IMG/VR virus record: IMGVR_UViG_2724679058_000003
DNA length: 64,000 nt
From: a virus
Lineage: Duplodnaviria > Heunggongvirae > Uroviricota > Caudoviricetes
Direction: 5' to 3' (one strand)
The notes beneath the pieces are model-generated. The model ran no database searches. It was given only the letters and a program-made list of their open reading frames with translations, and was not told where the DNA came from. Both the position numbers and the translations under genes were made by a program. Within the stretch, counting starts at the first letter, position 1, and each line of letters starts with the position of its first letter. Positions 11,649 to 55,837 of the stretch are shown piece after piece.

Positions 11649-12133
11649 AAACACCTCTCGTCACCCGTAATGACATAGCCGAAGCGATCGCCCTGCATAC
11701 TGCCTGTATGCCGACACGGGAGATCCCCGGCGCAATTGCCAACTATTTCATGATAACCAGACGTTTTTATACCCGAACAGATAAGGCTGTGATCAACAAG
11801 CTACTGATAGCCGAGATCAGGGATTATTTGATTGAACAAGGACGTCTACGTTACGCAACAGTGGCAGCAGAAATGAGAAAGGAGGCACATAGAATGACCG
11901 GTAATAATTTAAATGTTGAAAAACCAGCACCTGTTGCTTCAGCTACGCCAGCACCAGCCGTGAATATCATTCCCAACACCGGAGACACAATCGACAGCCT
12001 GACACTGTTAAAGATGGTCAATGAAGCGCGTAAGTTATGTGGGGAACCAGAGGTTCGGAACAACAAATTCATCGAAAAAATACTCGATGAGCTTGATGGT
12101 GAGCACTACACAAAAAGTGTAGTGAAAAAATGA
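11645..12133 (+). CDS. Antirepressor-like protein, N-terminal module
   Basis: 162-aa ORF coupled (ATGA) to the following KilAC-domain ORF. Confidence 0.55.
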   Translation: MKTPLVTRNDIAEAIALHTACMPTREIPGAIANYFMITRRFYTRTDKAVINKLLIAEIRDYLIEQGRLRYATVAAEMRKEAHRMTGNNLNVEKPAPVASATPAPAVNIIPNTGDTIDSLTLLKMVNEARKLCGEPEVRNNKFIEKILDELDGEHYTKSVVKK

Positions 12134-12681
12134 ACAAAACATCAATGCTTGTCATAACCATGACTTTCAAACAAGCCCTGCGAGTCGCCGCGCGCGAGTC
12201 AAAAGCGGTCCGCCGTTCGCTGATCGACAAACTGGAAGAATTACAGCAGGCAAACTCACCTACCCCATCGATCCCCCAGACATTACCAGAAGCCCTACGC
12301 CTGGCTGCCGAGTTAGCAGAACAGAAAATGCAGTTGGAACAACAGCTGGTGGCCGCAGCCCCTAAAGTCGATTTTGCCGACCGGGTATCAGTGGCCAATG
12401 GAATCCTGATCGGGAACTTTGCAAAGGTCGTTGGACTTAAGCAAAACGCCCTTTTCTCATGGTTGCGCCAGAACGGCATTCTCATGGCTTTTGGTGCGCG
12501 CAAAAACGTACCGCGCCAACAGTACATCAACGCCGGGTATTTCACGGTGAAAGAAGTGGTACTGGATGATGAAAATGGCTACCAGATACGGCTGACGCCC
12601 CAATTAACGGGTAAAGGCCAGCAGTGGTTAACTCGCAAGCTACTTGATGCTGGTTTGTTAAAACCAGTAGCAATAGGTTAA
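12130..12681 (+). CDS. Antirepressor, KilAC (Ant C-terminal) domain protein
   Basis: 183 aa; LPEALRLAAELAEQK...GNFAKVVGL...TGKGQQWL closely parallels the C-terminal half of the 12845..13645 protein. Confidence 0.75.
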   Translation: MNKTSMLVITMTFKQALRVAARESKAVRRSLIDKLEELQQANSPTPSIPQTLPEALRLAAELAEQKMQLEQQLVAAAPKVDFADRVSVANGILIGNFAKVVGLKQNALFSWLRQNGILMAFGARKNVPRQQYINAGYFTVKEVVLDDENGYQIRLTPQLTGKGQQWLTRKLLDAGLLKPVAIG

Positions 12682-12720: not shown

Positions 12721-12758
12721 GCAGATCGTCCAACCCGATCTGGATCGAGTCAGAAAAA

Positions 12759-12775
12759 TTTGCTCTAATAAATTT
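12759..12775 (+). promoter_or_regulatory. C1-type operator upstream of kilA
   Basis: TTTGCTCTAATAAATTT, 16/17 consensus match. Confidence 0.7.
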
Positions 12776-12844: not shown

Positions 12845-13645
12845 ATGCAACAAACATTCAATGCGGATATGAATATATCAAACCTTCATCAAAATGTCGA
12901 TCCTTCAACCACTCTGCCTGTTATTTGTGGTGTTGAAATTACGACCGACCGCGCTGGCCGTTACAACCTTAATGCTCTACACAGAGCGAGCGGACTCGGT
13001 GCCCATAAAGCGCCAGCTCAATGGCTAAGAACGCTGTCAGCCAAACAGCTCATCGAAGAGCTTGAAAAAGAAACTATGCAGAATTGCATAGTTTCGTTCG
13101 AAGGCCGTGGCGGCGGCACTTTTGCCCATGAATTGCTCGCAGTGGAGTACGCAGGCTGGATTTCTCCCGCGTTTCGGCTGAAGGTAAACCAGACATTTAT
13201 CGACTATCGAGCCGGAAGATTACAACCTGCTATTCCGAAGAGCCTCCCAGAAGCTCTCCGTTTGGCTGCTGACCTGGCAGAGCAAAAGCAACGGCTGGAG
13301 CAAAAAATGCTGATGGATGCACCTAAAGTCGAATTCGCCGAACGCGTTGCTACCGCCAGCGGGGTTCTAATCGGCAACTATGCCAAAGTGCTCGGCCTGG
13401 GCCAAAACTATCTCTTCACCTGGTTGCGTGATAACGGAATTCTGATCGCAACCGGTGAACGCAGGAACGTCCCCAAACAAGAATACATATCCCGTGGGTA
13501 TTTCACCCTTAAAGAAACCGTGATCGATACAAGCAATGGAAGCAGGATTTCTTTCACGACTCGTATAACCGGCAAAGGTCAGCAGTGGCTGATGAAGCGA
13601 TTGCTTGATGCTGGTGTGCTGGTACCTGTCGCGGCAACGCGCTAA
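12845..13645 (+). CDS. kilA: KilA (KilA-N domain plus KilAC domain)
   Basis: 266 aa; N-terminal KilA-N-like region and C-terminal ANT/KilAC region. Confidence 0.8.
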   Translation: MQQTFNADMNISNLHQNVDPSTTLPVICGVEITTDRAGRYNLNALHRASGLGAHKAPAQWLRTLSAKQLIEELEKETMQNCIVSFEGRGGGTFAHELLAVEYAGWISPAFRLKVNQTFIDYRAGRLQPAIPKSLPEALRLAADLAEQKQRLEQKMLMDAPKVEFAERVATASGVLIGNYAKVLGLGQNYLFTWLRDNGILIATGERRNVPKQEYISRGYFTLKETVIDTSNGSRISFTTRITGKGQQWLMKRLLDAGVLVPVAATR

Positions 13646-13674
13646 CAGACGTAGTAAGAACCACCAGCATTGTA

Positions 13675-14175
13675 ATGCTGGCTAAAGTCACTTTCCTGAG
13701 CTGTATAACGATGAGCGATTTTACTTTTTCTGGCTATGAATTGGCCTGCTTTGTAACACACTCCGGTCTATCCCGTAGCGCCGGGCATATCCTGTCGCAA
13801 TGTGCAAATCTCGCGGCAACAACCAGTGAATACTTCATTCACAAGCCTCACCGCCTGATCGCGGCAGAAACTGGTTATAGCCAATCAACCGTCGTTCGTG
13901 CATTCCGTGAAGCTGTAAACAAAGGAATTCTGTCTGTAGAGATTGTTATCGGCGATCACCGTGAACGTCGCGCTAACCTGTACCGGTTTACACCATCCTT
14001 TTTGGCCTTCGCACAACAAGCCAAAAATGCGCTGATTGAAAGCAAATTAAAGATCTCTTCAGCGGCAACCAAGGTTAAAGCTGTTCTCGCTAAGACATTG
14101 GCTTTATTTAATTTTTTATCCACACCCCATGTCAAAATGATACCCCCTCCCCCTGTCAGGATGACGTGGCAATAA
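13675..14175 (+). CDS. repL: RepL-like lytic replication protein, N-terminal portion
   Basis: 166-aa ORF directly after kilA; ends in a CCCCCTCCCCC tract. Confidence 0.55.
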   Translation: MLAKVTFLSCITMSDFTFSGYELACFVTHSGLSRSAGHILSQCANLAATTSEYFIHKPHRLIAAETGYSQSTVVRAFREAVNKGILSVEIVIGDHRERRANLYRFTPSFLAFAQQAKNALIESKLKISSAATKVKAVLAKTLALFNFLSTPHVKMIPPPPVRMTWQ

Positions 14176-14519
14176 AGAATAAGAAGTCACAAGTTAAAAA
14201 AACAAAAAGATCAGTTTCCGGCGGTGCCGGAACGACCAGACTCAAAAAATTGACTTCATGGATCGCTGAGGCAAAAGCAAAGGCTGACAATCTGCGGTTA
14301 TCCAAAAAACGCGCTCAAAAACATGAGTTCAAGCAGAAAGTAGAGGCGGCAGCGCGGAAATATGCTTACCTGAAGAACAAGTGTTCTCCTGATATTGGCG
14401 GGGTATCAAACTTCGATAATCTGCCGCATTGCATGACGGTAAACGAAGCTCTTAATGCGGTTTTAGCCAAAAATAAAGATAACGAACAATGGGGTATACC
14501 GGCAGGATTCAGAGGGTGA
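14166..14519 (+). CDS. repL: RepL-like protein, C-terminal portion (adjacent frame)
   Basis: 117-aa ORF overlapping the previous one by 10 nt; its frame is open upstream to 14112; combined length ~283 aa. Confidence 0.55.
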   Translation: MAIKNKKSQVKKTKRSVSGGAGTTRLKKLTSWIAEAKAKADNLRLSKKRAQKHEFKQKVEAAARKYAYLKNKCSPDIGGVSNFDNLPHCMTVNEALNAVLAKNKDNEQWGIPAGFRG

Positions 14520-14815
14520 TAGATTGCTCTAATCTGGAGTCACCTGGCGTTTTCAGTTTGAGGTCGGAGATGCAATCTGATTTTTTACAGTTAGCGGTCG
14601 CTTTTGCAGGATATGTTTGTATTGGCTTCTGTGTATACATGATCAGCCGAAAAATGCTTGTCGATATCGACCGCAAAGAACGAGCAGAGGAGATCTTAGT
14701 ATGGATTTTCTTTGGCGCGGTCTGGCCATTAGGGATCATGTTTGCTGCAACATTTCTTCTGATGTGGATATTCACCCTTCCAGGTGATTTCTATAGAAAA
14801 AAAGCCAGACATTGA
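14489..14815 (+). CDS. Small membrane protein
   Basis: 108-aa ORF with two hydrophobic helices. Confidence 0.45.
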   Translation: MGYTGRIQRVIDCSNLESPGVFSLRSEMQSDFLQLAVAFAGYVCIGFCVYMISRKMLVDIDRKERAEEILVWIFFGAVWPLGIMFAATFLLMWIFTLPGDFYRKKARH

Positions 14816-14997
14816 TACAATCGTTGCGGGTGCTTGAGGCTATCTGCTTCAGGCATTACCCGAAAAGCAGATAGAAGAAAGCCCCAGATAACATTACGCG
14901 TCCTGCAAGACGCTTAACATTAATCTGAGGCCATATCTATGCTTAGCATACGTAGATTAACCCTCTCCCATTTTAAGGAGCAAGGAATTTTTTACTG

Positions 14998-15630
14998 CTA
15001 TGCCGCATTTCCAATTATGGATTCAGCGACCAGAACAACCCCATGCTTACTTCGATCTGGGTGTTCACTCCATATCTCGGATTCAGGAATACTTACCCCG
15101 TCATAGCAAACACGTTCGCCGTCAAACGGGTAATACTGAGCGGCATCGGTGTCGAGGATAAACACTTTTAGCTCGGAAGAGCGACGGGCGATGTGTTGCC
15201 AAAGAGCTTTTCCACCTTCGTATTGCTCATTATCACTGAGCAAAACAACACCAGCCTTTGAGGCTACGGTTTCGTAAACAAAAGTAGCTAAACCGACATC
15301 CCGGACAGTTCCATCAACCACGATACCTTCAATCTGGGCAACATCGCTATCCTCCCAGAACTTCCTTACCAGTACGCCTTCAAGCTGCGGGCGACGTTGA
15401 AGTTCAAGAGTAGCGACAACCTTATGCCGCATATCACCATCGATAATAGAAGGCGCAGCCTCTATTACAGCTGCAAATGGGGTTTTAGAATCCCATATAA
15501 CCTGGTAAAGCACACCCTGGATGGTAACTCCGTCCAGGATCGAAAATCGACGAGCGACAGTACCCGGGGAGTACGACATTGGAATCACAGCCATTTTAGA
15601 GTCCCCCTTTAACAGTACAGGCACAAACAT
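14998..15630 (-). CDS. Hypothetical protein
   Basis: 210-aa ORF. Confidence 0.6.
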   Translation of the reverse strand: MFVPVLLKGDSKMAVIPMSYSPGTVARRFSILDGVTIQGVLYQVIWDSKTPFAAVIEAAPSIIDGDMRHKVVATLELQRRPQLEGVLVRKFWEDSDVAQIEGIVVDGTVRDVGLATFVYETVASKAGVVLLSDNEQYEGGKALWQHIARRSSELKVFILDTDAAQYYPFDGERVCYDGVSIPESEIWSEHPDRSKHGVVLVAESIIGNAA

Positions 15631-15765
15631 CTACCTCAATAATTGTAGTTTATTAGAACATTAATAATCTAACATAAAACTCCAGACAATGTTATCGATG
15701 CATGTTTATATAAAATAGTTATAAAAAAAGCTCCCGAAGGAGCTTTAAAATACAAGGGATGACTC

Positions 15766-51583: not shown

Positions 51584-52163
51584 TGCGTGTGGCATTTTTC
51601 GGCTTGTTACCGTACCCGCCTTGTTTTTGGACTTCTGCGCTAATTGCAAAGCCGCATGTCCTGATGGCTGACAACATCATCCCGGCACCAAAGCGCCGCC
51701 ATACCGGTATTGCGGCTGCACGACGCGAAGCAAAGAAACGCAGGAGAGCAAAACGATGAAAAACCGTAAAGCAAAGATTCTGTTAGTTCGTAGAAACGCT
51801 CCTGGCGTCTGGCAGTGGGTGAGACTCAGCAACCGACGGATGGGGTTGATGAAATATTACGGGATGATGGATTGTGGTTTTGCAAAAGCCCAGCGCGGCG
51901 CAAAACCGCTGGAAAAACCACTTGCGCACTAAAGGAGAGTGATGTGCCGACATTATTCAGAAAAGAATATCCGCGAAAAAGTAGAGCGACAGAATTTCTG
52001 TTTCTCATTCTGTTTATCGTGTTGATGACACCGATATCCCCGCTAATTTTTGTCTGGGTAATCGGGAAAATAATTGAGCCAGTTATTGAATTGTATAACG
52101 ACGTGGTATGGGCGTCGTTCAATACACTGCACAATAAAATTAATCCATATAAGGAAAACTGAA

Positions 52164-52529
52164 ATGGCACTGACGAAAAAACAACGTGCAGAGCTGCGCA
52201 TGAAGTTCGGCGGTCGCTGTGCTTATTGTGGCTGTGAACTTGGCGAAAAGTGGCATGCAGACCATGTAAAACCGGTCATTCGTTTTGCTGGGAATATGCT
52301 TCACCAGGAACGTGACGATATATCCAACCTGGTTCCGGCATGCCACCCATGCAATCTGCACAAGCATTGCAGTAGCCTGGAAGATTATCGGCGAATTATC
52401 AGTGATGGTCGTCGTGAATTCCTTGCGTCCGGGAAAGGCAAAGCGCTGGTTCGTATGGGATTGGTTGAAATGAAATCTGACCCGGTTGTGTTCTGGTTTG
52501 AAAAATATCAAGAAGGGGATACGGCATGA
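52164..52529 (+). CDS. HNH endonuclease
   Basis: 121 aa from ATG 52164; CAYCGC...HADHVKP...CHPCNLHK. Confidence 0.75.
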   Translation: MALTKKQRAELRMKFGGRCAYCGCELGEKWHADHVKPVIRFAGNMLHQERDDISNLVPACHPCNLHKHCSSLEDYRRIISDGRREFLASGKGKALVRMGLVEMKSDPVVFWFEKYQEGDTA

Positions 52530-52912
52530 CCACTATTACCAAAGAGCGACTGCTGACAATCAAGCAGTGGCGCGAAACATACGGACCTGGTAGCAACGTT
52601 GTACTGCCAGCAGAAGAAGCGGAAGAACTGGCACGAATTGCTCTGGCATCGCTGGAAGCAAAACCAATAGGTGCTTTCCACATTGCAGAACAGCAGGTCG
52701 ATGGCACAAGTGACTACATCAAGGATGGGGAATGGCCTATTGATAATGGAATTATTGAGGTCTACGCCGCTCCACCCGTTCCAGTAGTACCGGAAGAAAA
52801 ACCAATGCCTAATCCTCTTAGCATGTACGCGGTTGATGCTGTTGCCGCTATTGCAGAGGTAAGAGGCTGGAACGCCTGCCGTGCCGCTATGCTTGAGGGT
52901 AAAGGAGAGTGA
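52526..52912 (+). CDS. Hypothetical protein, paralogue of the N-terminal half of 53122..54006
   Basis: 128 aa; shares IALASLEA and GWNACRAAML motifs. Confidence 0.55.
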   Translation: MTTITKERLLTIKQWRETYGPGSNVVLPAEEAEELARIALASLEAKPIGAFHIAEQQVDGTSDYIKDGEWPIDNGIIEVYAAPPVPVVPEEKPMPNPLSMYAVDAVAAIAEVRGWNACRAAMLEGKGE

Positions 52913-53111
52913 TATGGACAAAAACACACCTGCTTACTGGAGTTTATCACTTGATACTGAATGCCCAAAATGCGGCCACAATTTCGATCTGCTTTGCGAT
53001 GCTGATTTCTGGGAATTTTCTGGAGCAAAACAGGCATGTGAAGAAATAAAAGGTTACGAAACATGCTGCCCAGAATGTAACCATGAATTTAAAACAGATT
53101 TTGTGTATTGA
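52881..53111 (+). CDS. Small zinc-ribbon protein
   Basis: 76-aa track ORF; CPKCGH ... CCPECNH. Confidence 0.45.
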   Translation: MPLCLRVKESDMDKNTPAYWSLSLDTECPKCGHNFDLLCDADFWEFSGAKQACEEIKGYETCCPECNHEFKTDFVY

Positions 53112-53121
53112 GGCATAACGA

Positions 53122-54006
53122 ATGACCACTTTTACTAAAGAACAATTAATAGAGATAATTAAGCGCAATATAACGGTTATGGATCGTTATCCTGATTTAG
53201 TAACTGCACAAATGGATCTGGAAGTATACAAAATCGCGCTGGCATCACTGGAAGCAGAACCAGTTGCTTATATTTTCAAACATCCGGCCGGGAAATTATT
53301 CTGGGCTTTAACGGATGAAAGCAATAAAGAGCAATCGGACGTTATTCCTGTTTATGCTGACTCACCTGCGCCGGTTGTGCCGGATGAAATAGACGTAAAC
53401 GATGTACCAAGGGCGGTGACATATTTCAAGACACACAGAGATTGTTACGCAGATGGCTGGAACGCCTGCCGCGCCGCCATGCTTCAGTCCGGAAACTTTC
53501 GGGAAAACAAGAATTCGTCAACCAATAATTTTCGGGAAATCGCGGAAACGTCAACCAACTATCCGGTAATTCCTAGTGAGGTGTTGTCCGCAATCCTGAA
53601 GGTTGCCAAGATTCGTGCCGATTTCGATGATTTTGACGGTGACAGGCGAGGTATCGGTGATTGTCTGGATGAGGCTGAGCAAGAGCTTATCGTTACCATT
53701 AACAAATATGCCAGTCAGTTGGCAGCAGAACCGATAGCGACTAATGACGTTCGAGAGCAGACAGCCATTCCGCAAGTTCCGGTAACTCCGGATGGTTGGA
53801 TAAGCTGTAGTGAGCGAATGCCGAATACCAAAACAGCCGTGCTTGTTGCCGTGGAGTTTGACAGGAAAGGTGACTGGCGAATGAAATGGGCTACTTACAT
53901 CCCGGGGCATCCTGACGCTAATGATGGGTGGATAATTCCTGGTGCGTCGTGGAAACCGTCACACTGGATGCCGCTACCAGAACCGCCGCAGGAGGTGAAT
54001 CAATGA
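53122..54006 (+). CDS. DUF551-like protein
   Basis: 294 aa; C-terminal WISCSERMP...GWIIPGASWKPSHWMPLPEPP. Confidence 0.55.
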   Translation: MTTFTKEQLIEIIKRNITVMDRYPDLVTAQMDLEVYKIALASLEAEPVAYIFKHPAGKLFWALTDESNKEQSDVIPVYADSPAPVVPDEIDVNDVPRAVTYFKTHRDCYADGWNACRAAMLQSGNFRENKNSSTNNFREIAETSTNYPVIPSEVLSAILKVAKIRADFDDFDGDRRGIGDCLDEAEQELIVTINKYASQLAAEPIATNDVREQTAIPQVPVTPDGWISCSERMPNTKTAVLVAVEFDRKGDWRMKWATYIPGHPDANDGWIIPGASWKPSHWMPLPEPPQEVNQ

Positions 54007-54070
54007 GCTGGCCTGAAGCATTCACCACGGTAGGAATTGTGATGGCGGCAGCGCTGGGTTTGTATTCAAT

Positions 54071-54322
54071 TTGTCGCTGGTGGTAACGATGGGGAAATTA
54101 ACTTTTGTAGTCGAATTTGAGGATGGTAAAGAGCCACCTGTTAGCGCCAATCTTGATGTTGCTGGTGGCAGGCTTGTTTCGGTTCTATTTGGTGACTACC
54201 GAGATGACTTCTTCCAACCAGAAGAAGTTGATGTAGTGCGAGAGGCATTAAACGAGTTAAGTGTTGACAACGATGATGCTCATGCGGAAATCATCCAAAA
54301 AATGGAACTGCTAACTCACTAA
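54071..54322 (+). CDS. Hypothetical small protein
   Basis: 83-aa ORF. Confidence 0.45.
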   Translation: MSLVVTMGKLTFVVEFEDGKEPPVSANLDVAGGRLVSVLFGDYRDDFFQPEEVDVVREALNELSVDNDDAHAEIIQKMELLTH

Positions 54323-54404
54323 ATTAGAAATTATGGTGCTATCACCTACGACACCGAGAGAAAATTTATAATGTCAAAAGTAAATGTTTTGATTTTTTCA
54401 GCAA

Positions 54405-54794
54405 TTGTTGGCTTTGGTTTTACTGCCGGAGTGCAGATTTATATTACGTGGGAAAAAATCATCAACTACGCATGGAGTTGTTTTATTAAGTGAGGTAAGT
54501 ATGTGGAGAGGTAATAGTCATGGCAAAAGCCAGATGATACTTACCGAATATCAGCTCGACCACAAAACCAATAAATCACGCTCAGTATATTTGCTCCGGC
54601 ACAATAGCCGTGTAAGAAATACCGTGCTGGAACAAAATCTGACAGTTGAAATGGATAATTACGGGGGCTTCAAGCCAACAATTTCGCTTGATGATTTTCC
54701 TCGTGGTTTAAGCGAAAGAGAAGCAATGCTGAAATTAGCAGAATGGCTACAAAGATTAAGCATTGCTATTGAAGATAACTGGTCTGAACCTTAA
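54405..54794 (+). CDS. Hypothetical protein
   Basis: 129-aa ORF. Confidence 0.45.
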   Translation: MLALVLLPECRFILRGKKSSTTHGVVLLSEVSMWRGNSHGKSQMILTEYQLDHKTNKSRSVYLLRHNSRVRNTVLEQNLTVEMDNYGGFKPTISLDDFPRGLSEREAMLKLAEWLQRLSIAIEDNWSEP

Positions 54795-54800
54795 ATTTAT

Positions 54801-55175
54801 ATGATGACACTAAAACATTTTCTTGACCGCCCATTATGGGCGGCAGCCGCAGGCTATGACTTTAATTATATGGATTGCATGTCTTATACTGCCAATGCAT
54901 ACGACCATTCGTTCACCCTGCTGTTTAATTCTTTAAGAATATTGCCGGAAACAGAAGTTGGAGAGCTTCATTTATGGCTATTGGGCTTTATCGCGGCTGT
55001 CGTTGGCATTGCTGTATGGCCTTTTATTTTCTGGCTGGTGGCTGTTGTAGTGTGGTTTAAGTGCAAGACATACCGGAAAAAGTATTTCTTGGGTGACGGA
55101 ATGACTGATATTGCCAAAATGAACATTGAAAAATGGACTAAGGAATGTGAAAAGAAATGGCGCAAAAAGAAATGA
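54801..55175 (+). CDS. Small membrane protein
   Basis: 124 aa with two hydrophobic helices. Confidence 0.45.
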   Translation: MMTLKHFLDRPLWAAAAGYDFNYMDCMSYTANAYDHSFTLLFNSLRILPETEVGELHLWLLGFIAAVVGIAVWPFIFWLVAVVVWFKCKTYRKKYFLGDGMTDIAKMNIEKWTKECEKKWRKKK

Positions 55176-55837
55176 CTACTCTAACGACAGCATACTTACA
55201 GCAATTGGTATTTTTTGCAGGCGAGGCTACTTGTCATCCTGACACAAACTATTTATTGGAATTTGAGAGGTTAGCGTCACCCGGTATCGTTCTGGAACTG
55301 GCCCAACAGGTACTGGCCTTGAGACAAAAAGAGCAACATGAAAGTAATACGTGTAGATTGAATTTTGAGCAGTGGCTGGAACAGCAACGCGGAAAAATCG
55401 ATGTGGACTGTGGTTGTGTGTCCACTGAAACATTCATGCACTGGCTGCGGGTAGCTTACGAGGCTGGCAACTATCCGGATATTCCGGATAGTTCGGTGTC
55501 AGCGCCAGGAAAGGGCGTCACCGGTGGACGTATCCGCATTAAGCCGCATGTTTATCGCGAACTGGTTAACCGTCTCCACGATACAGCGATCAAGTGTGCT
55601 GGCACCCAGCAATTACGAGAAAGAATTAGCCGTGTTTTGGGCGACGTTATTACGCCAGATCATCATAAACAAGCCGAGAAAAGTGGCTTGGAAAGGTGTC
55701 ACCTTGAGGCGGCATTAAACATTAAGCCGGGGCATACGCTTGGCATTATTGATGCACTATTGGTTCATAAGATGGCCAGGGCTTTATTGCCGCTGGTGGC
55801 TGAAAAGCATGAGGCGGACCATGCCAACGAAAGCTGA
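55157..55837 (+). CDS. Hypothetical protein
   Basis: 226-aa ORF. Confidence 0.55.
   Translation: MAQKEMTTLTTAYLQQLVFFAGEATCHPDTNYLLEFERLASPGIVLELAQQVLALRQKEQHESNTCRLNFEQWLEQQRGKIDVDCGCVSTETFMHWLRVAYEAGNYPDIPDSSVSAPGKGVTGGRIRIKPHVYRELVNRLHDTAIKCAGTQQLRERISRVLGDVITPDHHKQAEKSGLERCHLEAALNIKPGHTLGIIDALLVHKMARALLPLVAEKHEADHANES

Follow-up and report, generated by a model that had tools for sequence, protein, structure and literature searches.

Has the phage-plasmid encoded here lost its capacity for lytic replication, or is the interruption of its repL gene a fault of the deposited sequence? We analyzed a 64,000-nt stretch of DNA (the window), which an exact-protein look-up identified as positions 1 to 64000 of LNZU01000048.1, a 92,842-bp contig of the Escherichia coli draft assembly GCA_001611725.1; the genome is that of a Brazilian blaKPC-2/IncQ1 E. 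coli (PMC8213540). The element is a P1-like phage-plasmid. The repL split is real in the deposited sequence but was misplaced by the original prediction, which had put it at a CCCCCTCCCCC tract, and it likely represents an assembly or sequencing indel error and not biology.

The lytic replicon and the site of the repL lesion

The locus is a standard P1 lytic replicon in which P53/Op53 is followed by kilA and then by repL, with oriL inside repL (Table 1). Both the gene order and the promoter/operator stretch are those of the P1 lytic replicon (NC_005856, 49792 to 51591). The latter stretch, placed by carrying over the P1 annotation (promoter P53 at locus positions 642 to 670, operator Op53 at 660 to 676), showed no difference from the P1 sequence in the alignment, and we take it to govern transcription of kilA-repL. 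Residues 1 to 266 of P1 KilA matched the intact kilA ORF at 99% identity with no stops in a tblastn search. As in P1, repL sits 3' of kilA under the C1-repressed P53/Op53. P1 cannot replicate lytically without its initiator RepL; the protein works at oriL, which lies within repL, and can also do so in trans on a noncoding copy, with the A/T-rich element AT2 inside the gene as the cis-acting origin (PMC9948254).

A single uninterrupted repL ORF of ∼281 codons is absent from the window, the reading frame being split at positions 14125 to 14128. As the original prediction had stated, the ORFs at 13675..14175 and 14166..14519 occupy neighboring frames and share 10 nt, and the second frame is open from 14112, because a TAA occupies 14109 to 14111; the listed second ORF (117 aa) begins at a GTG at 14166. 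The prediction that these ORFs are two parts of one RepL-like gene also held, as one matches the N-terminal and the other the C-terminal part of P1 RepL in tblastn and PHROGs searches, and alignment with P1 repL shows that the gene is cut by a −1 frameshift. The product of the first ORF, deposited as KYZ99530.1 under the name "repL", carries RepL homology in residues 1 to 151, then has 15 residues in the wrong frame (HVKMIPPPPVRMTWQ) before it ends at a premature stop. RepL residues 147 to 281 match the 3' part at 93% identity, and the two fragments together account for residues 1 to 281 of P1 RepL. The repaired protein aligned over the full length of phrog_2418 (positions 1 to 291 of 291; E = 3.7e-157), and precomputed Pfam matches to PF26868 (Phage_P1_RepL) are present on both fragments. 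It is on these PHROGs and precomputed PF26868 matches that the family assignment relies, as no family for RepL emerged from our local scans of Pfam and NCBIfam, in which the N-terminal fragment drew only sub-threshold hits to MarR_2 and HTH_36, with a weak, sub-threshold MarR/HTH-like match spanning residues 61 to 96.

The lesion itself is the loss of one base from a run of five C's, which reads ACA-CCCC-ATG in the window and ACA-CCCCC-ATG in relatives. The CCCCCTCCCCC tract, where the extra C had been proposed to belong, is present but is not the lesion, as it is base for base that of wild-type records. Inserting a C there does restore a 281-aa product, as proposed, but leaves six foreign residues at 152 to 157, which read HVKMIP where the conserved PCQNDT is expected. 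The proposed junction peptide, ...KMIPPSPCQDD..., is therefore wrong, since the lesion lies in the C4 run and not in the tract. Adding one C to the C4 run instead yields a 281-aa RepL that differs at 5 aa from P1 RepL and at a single residue (R237C) from WP_023154394.1, the RepL of plasmid pSBF45b (NZ_CP067234), which shares 99.7% nucleotide identity with the window over positions 13600 to 14600. Records of the pSBF45b type carry CCCCC and a single 846-nt repL ORF, whereas the window carries CCCC and a split gene.

The sequence around the lesion is otherwise conserved. The A/T-rich stretch that follows the C-rich block and that likely corresponds to AT2 is unchanged from P1 and, between the anchors TGTCAGGATGACGTGG and GGCGGTGCCGGAAC, represents the majority allele (96 loci). 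Directly 3' of the repL stop lies the counterpart of the C1 operator Op55, of which the initial 11 nt (ATTGCTCTAAT) are conserved while the remainder departs from P1, as it does in pSBF45b. Unlike P1, the window lacks rlfA, rlfB, and pmgF downstream of repL and encodes other small ORFs instead, as do many P1-like plasmids such as pSBF45b.

A true shift would reduce RepL to its N-terminal 151 residues, with the C-terminal 130 missing, and we would expect no lytic amplification unless RepL were supplied in trans. The claim that a real shift would inactivate the lytic replicon is thus reasonable as a conditional, given that RepL is essential and that 130 of its 281 residues would be lost, but the shift is probably not real.

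Table 1. Coordinates of the lytic replicon, the repL lesion, and the single-base indels in the window
Feature	Position	Strand	Basis
P53/PkilA promoter and C1 operator Op53 (OrepL)	12741..12775	+	P1 annotation carried over by alignment
kilA, intact, 266 aa	12845..13645	+	ORF list; tblastn with P1 KilA
repL 5' fragment, 166 aa	13675..14175	+	ORF list; tblastn; phrog_2418 positions 1-154; PF26868
repL 3' part, −1 frame	14112..14519	+	tblastn; phrog_2418 positions 166-291
Frameshift site, CCCC here and CCCCC in relatives (1-nt deletion)	14125..14128	+	Alignments
CCCCCTCCCCC tract, wild-type length and sequence	14143..14153	+	Same as P1, MH422554, and pSBF45b
A/T-rich stretch after C-rich block, likely AT2, candidate oriL core	14168..14212	.	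Coordinates inferred
Op55 (Orlf) C1-operator counterpart, directly 3' of repL stop	14523..14539	+	P1 annotation (locus 2425-2441) via alignment
Replacement ORFs 3' of repL (14520-15700)	81 aa, 14570-14812; 198 aa, 15001-15594, minus strand		As in pSBF45b and NZ_CP126930
Single-base indels	2094, 6283 (sit), 7656, 9955, 12118-12149, 16718, 19321, 25561 (repA)		Versus P1 and/or NZ_CP126930
Single-base indels	30085, 34408, 38168, 40057 (gene 24), 41115, 43409, 46076, 60037		Versus P1 and/or NZ_CP126930

Frequency of the CCCC allele and other repL frameshifts among relatives

Across four collections, the CCCC allele was found in none of ∼1,150 relatives. An 81-nt query recovered it from 0 of 505 PLSDB plasmids, the best matches being the 82-nt CCCCC form, and from 0 of 514 complete-genome records of E. 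coli; a degenerate pattern spanning both C tracts recovered it from 0 of 93 IMG/VR loci and 0 of 42 metagenome loci. All 135 of the IMG/VR and metagenome loci have CCCCC at this site, and the CCCCCTCCCCC tract is exact in 131 of them, with only in-frame substitutions in the remaining 4. Nor are the two ORFs conserved as separate genes in relatives: repL is intact and full length at 110 of the 135 loci, frameshifted at 7, and cut by the locus end without a defect at 16. An exact 56-nt pattern for the CCCC allele had no matches in the genome-contig and viral-contig collections.

We dropped the idea that the allele is a private singleton of this contig when an exact-protein look-up returned the same out-of-frame peptide from other assemblies. 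A 154-aa form of the first ORF, with its start at 13711 and the same out-of-frame tail, occurs on 6 to 10 contigs from independent samples, 5 of which were confirmed to carry CCCC followed by an unchanged CCCCCTCCCCC; single wild-type RepL sequences each occur on >1,000 contigs. Four of the CCCC carriers are otherwise clean (SKEX01000393.1, ERR3506804, SRR8634331, and ERR296636), with every other fully covered P1 gene that we checked intact (4 to about 20 per locus), unlike the window. They represent three distinct haplotypes, SKEX01000393.1 and SRR8634331 being identical in this region. In the 1.68-kb kilA-repL region the window haplotype differs from every clean carrier at 13 to 17 positions but from the wild-type pSBF45b at only 9, making that plasmid closer to the window than any other C4 carrier. 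The four clean independent assemblies indicate that this exact mutation does occur in nature, where the C5-to-C4 change is a genuine, rare, natural loss-of-function variant that is probably recurrent.

Other frameshifts affect repL as well, and those at short homopolymers around the candidate origin recur in cleaner assemblies. Phage vB_EcoM-673R5 (ON470615.2) has lost one C from the second run of CCCCCTCCCCC (locus 2040 to 2080), and its annotation gives RepL as two CDSs; this is the very site at which the lesion had been suspected in the window. About 70 nt downstream, contraction of an A run (14196 to 14202 in the window) from A7 to A6 frameshifts repL in 5 IMG/VR contigs, with one more contig carrying a −2 change, and in 3 of 514 PLSDB plasmids; NZ_CP016549.1 and CP121349.1 are examples. 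The IMG identifiers of the IMG/VR carriers fall within a narrow range (2529292906 to 2534681832), and the A6 allele in these contigs may be a platform artefact or mark a clade. Like the window, vB_EcoM-673R5 and the A6 and C4 carriers have a repL gene split by a single-base contraction of a short homopolymer at or inside the candidate origin. More broadly, at least 210 contigs carry an annotated 89-aa fragment from the RepL C terminus, and PHROGs has one family for the N-terminal part and another for the C-terminal part (8046 and 7057).

ERR14686192, a P1-like locus with rlfA and rlfB downstream, combines CCCC with a 2-nt loss from the A run (2028 to 2110); with 3 nt lost in all, the gene is back in frame. 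It has further frameshifts in ant1, rlfA, pmgF, and pmgG, and because of these multiple frameshifts in the same contig it was probably built from error-prone reads.

Single-base indels across the window

The full window was aligned to two references, P1 (NC_005856) and NZ_CP126930, the closest of the finished plasmids. Against both references, the 48.6 kb that could be jointly aligned contain 14 isolated 1-nt indels, 12 of them deletions and 2 insertions, and two more occur where only NZ_CP126930 aligns. The window carries ∼16 single-base indels in its 64 kb. Most are contractions of 2- to 5-nt runs (A4 to A3, T5 to T4, A5 to A4, C5 to C4, T3 to T2, and CC to C). Roughly half of the indels occur in runs of 4 nt or more, a class that contains only 6.4% of the bases. 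Three of the indels other than that in repL are intergenic or at an alignment edge. The share of indels in coding sequence is about that expected from coding density, so selection has not filtered them.

At least 12 conserved genes are frameshifted, namely, gene 16, sit, ant1, repL, pmgG, dmt, gene 5, gene 24, gene 25, pdcB, an ORF in the sim region, and repA, the plasmid initiator of the RepB family. Tail and baseplate genes are among them, and the C termini of pmgM and pmgQ are changed by indels as well. Using the annotated P1 and plasmid CDSs as queries in a screen for gene breaks, we found no in-frame stops arising from substitution in the window, and the affected genes contain no IS insertions or larger deletions. 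This screen replaced one based on stop-to-stop ORFs, which had given 11 internal stops; two of these belonged to sequence read out of frame beyond a frameshift, and the others seemed for the most part to be pseudo-ORFs on the antisense strand. Downstream of each break the frame is open at 90 to 100% identity, and repA has 100% amino acid identity on each side of its break. The window's sit allele (T4) was found at 0 of 81 IMG/VR loci and its repA allele at 0 of 44, and nine of ten N-terminal peptides that result from the frameshifts occur nowhere else in a collection of 15 billion proteins.

The finished plasmid served as a control. In NZ_CP126930, 56 of 61 P1 genes are intact and one, pmgS, is frameshifted, the other four differences being structural or effects of the record origin. 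The pmgS frameshift lies at residue 46 (31040 to 32295 of NZ_CP126930.1), where no CDS is listed, and it indicates that even finished P1-like plasmids have single frameshifts, either in reality or in the deposited record. We had also considered plp and pmgT as split genes in the window, but the finished plasmid has the same arrangement, and we regard them as structural variants and not errors.

Sequencing error, recent mutation, or decay

The repL split is probably not real because the same contig holds a dozen similar frameshifts in conserved or essential genes. We infer that the indels are most likely technical and not biological, a reading favored by their enrichment in homopolymers, their deletion bias, their distribution according to coding density, and the lack of any other trace of decay in the affected genes. 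The missing C would then be a base-calling or assembly error, one of the ∼16 scattered over the window, and the true element would have a functional lytic replicon and an unbroken RepL of 281 aa. If the break in repA were real, moreover, this plasmid-sized 92.8-kb contig could not maintain itself. Some observations do point the other way. Short homopolymers are natural slippage sites too, and a deletion bias also arises naturally. Four independent assemblies that are otherwise clean share the C4 allele, and the P1-like plasmid pJIE250-3 is a documented case in which the lytic replicon was lost (PMC6906374). In our judgment, the clean C4 carriers count for less than what the remainder of the contig shows.

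A genuine and recent loss of function, in which replication slippage turned CCCCC into CCCC and silenced lytic replication so that the element persists only as a plasmid, is the strongest competitor of a technical error but is nonetheless unlikely. Under such a scenario RepL would end after residue 151, AT2 would remain intact and usable by RepL supplied in trans, and the remaining indels of the contig could be errors or not. The clean carriers speak for it, as they share the identical allele in assemblies of short-read quality on three haplotypes with intact, fully covered neighbors, as do the other repL frameshifts (in vB_EcoM-673R5 and the A6 alleles), the widely annotated 89-aa C-terminal fragment, and the fact that repL is dispensable for plasmid maintenance, with documented loss of the lytic replicon (PMC6906374). 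Against this stand the extreme rarity of C4, which is absent from the ∼1,150 relatives and found on 6 to 10 contigs versus >1,000 for a single wild-type sequence, and the failure of the window haplotype to group with the other C4 carriers. A technical cause is also simpler because the repL lesion is accompanied in this contig by a dozen other frameshifts, and some of these, like that in repA, would be intolerable. The broader proposal that the repL homopolymers (the C5 at 14125, CCCCCTCCCCC, and the A7 at 14196) are natural hot spots of slippage, at which lytic replication is switched off time and again so that P1-like phage-plasmids are left to live as plasmids only, with the window's CCCC as a genuine instance, strikes us as doubtful to a similar degree.

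It is far less probable that all of the frameshifts are real and that the window belongs to a decaying, defective P1-like prophage, for instance, one whose host is deficient in mismatch repair or one that another replicon carries along passively, with repL as one pseudogene among many. The number of broken genes would fit such decay, and deletion-biased indels associated with runs are what slippage in a mutator background is expected to produce. Decay is, however, hard to reconcile with affected genes that have no nonsense substitutions, IS insertions, or larger deletions, with downstream frames that remain open and highly identical, or with a repA that is broken yet identical on each side; the contig is sized like a free plasmid, the coding share of the indels matches coding density instead of being filtered by selection, and the window's sit and repA alleles are missing from every IMG/VR locus compared. 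We give almost no credence to a functional split, whether through programmed −1 ribosomal frameshifting that yields full-length RepL or through on/off phase variation of the C tracts. The overlap does hold CCC CCU CCC CCU, on which tRNA-Pro in the A site could pair again following a −1 slip, and C-run indels in repL are repeated. A programmed frameshift was rejected, as the two-frame layout is not conserved (RepL of relatives is encoded in one frame, with the in-frame run length in 1,150 of 1,150 relatives checked) and positions 14112 to 14175 contain no zero-frame X XXY YYZ heptamer, the CCC CCU pairs being preceded by A or T. A phase-variable contingency locus was likewise rejected, because five-base runs are established to be too short for switching at the high rates of known contingency loci and the run length is not polymorphic (C5 in 135 of 135 loci, C4 in 0 of 1,019 records).

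Since an error in the deposited sequence is the reading we prefer, the practical value of this analysis is a warning about apparent pseudogenes in LNZU01000048.1, where any pseudogene call (sit, repA, the tail and baseplate genes, dmt, or pdcB) is suspect and should not be taken as gene decay. Biologically, the finding means little: textbook knowledge of P1 already covers the gene, how it is regulated, and the origin within it, and nothing new follows from finding it frameshifted in a draft contig prone to errors. Were the shift true, the element would be one more P1-like plasmid without lytic replication, which would bear on the phage-mode spread of elements that often carry resistance genes. 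The outcome would then be the same as in pJIE250-3, although there the lytic module was deleted (Venturini et al. 2019, PMC6906374), whereas the window has a point frameshift that is probably not real.

Two other regions of the window depart from P1. The plasmid initiator (24796 to 25676) is of the RepB family, with both halves 100% identical to WP_001113742.1 of NZ_CP126930, and the IncY RepA of P1 has no match in the window; a GIY-YIG nuclease gene lies between the initiator and parA. Homology to pmgT stops at residue 232 and resumes 6.3 kb further on (55455 to 55685), and the interval (49173 to 55455 of the window) is a replacement or insertion relative to P1. NZ_CP126930 aligns to the initial ∼1.4 kb (up to 50608) and the final ∼1 kb (from 54495) of this interval.
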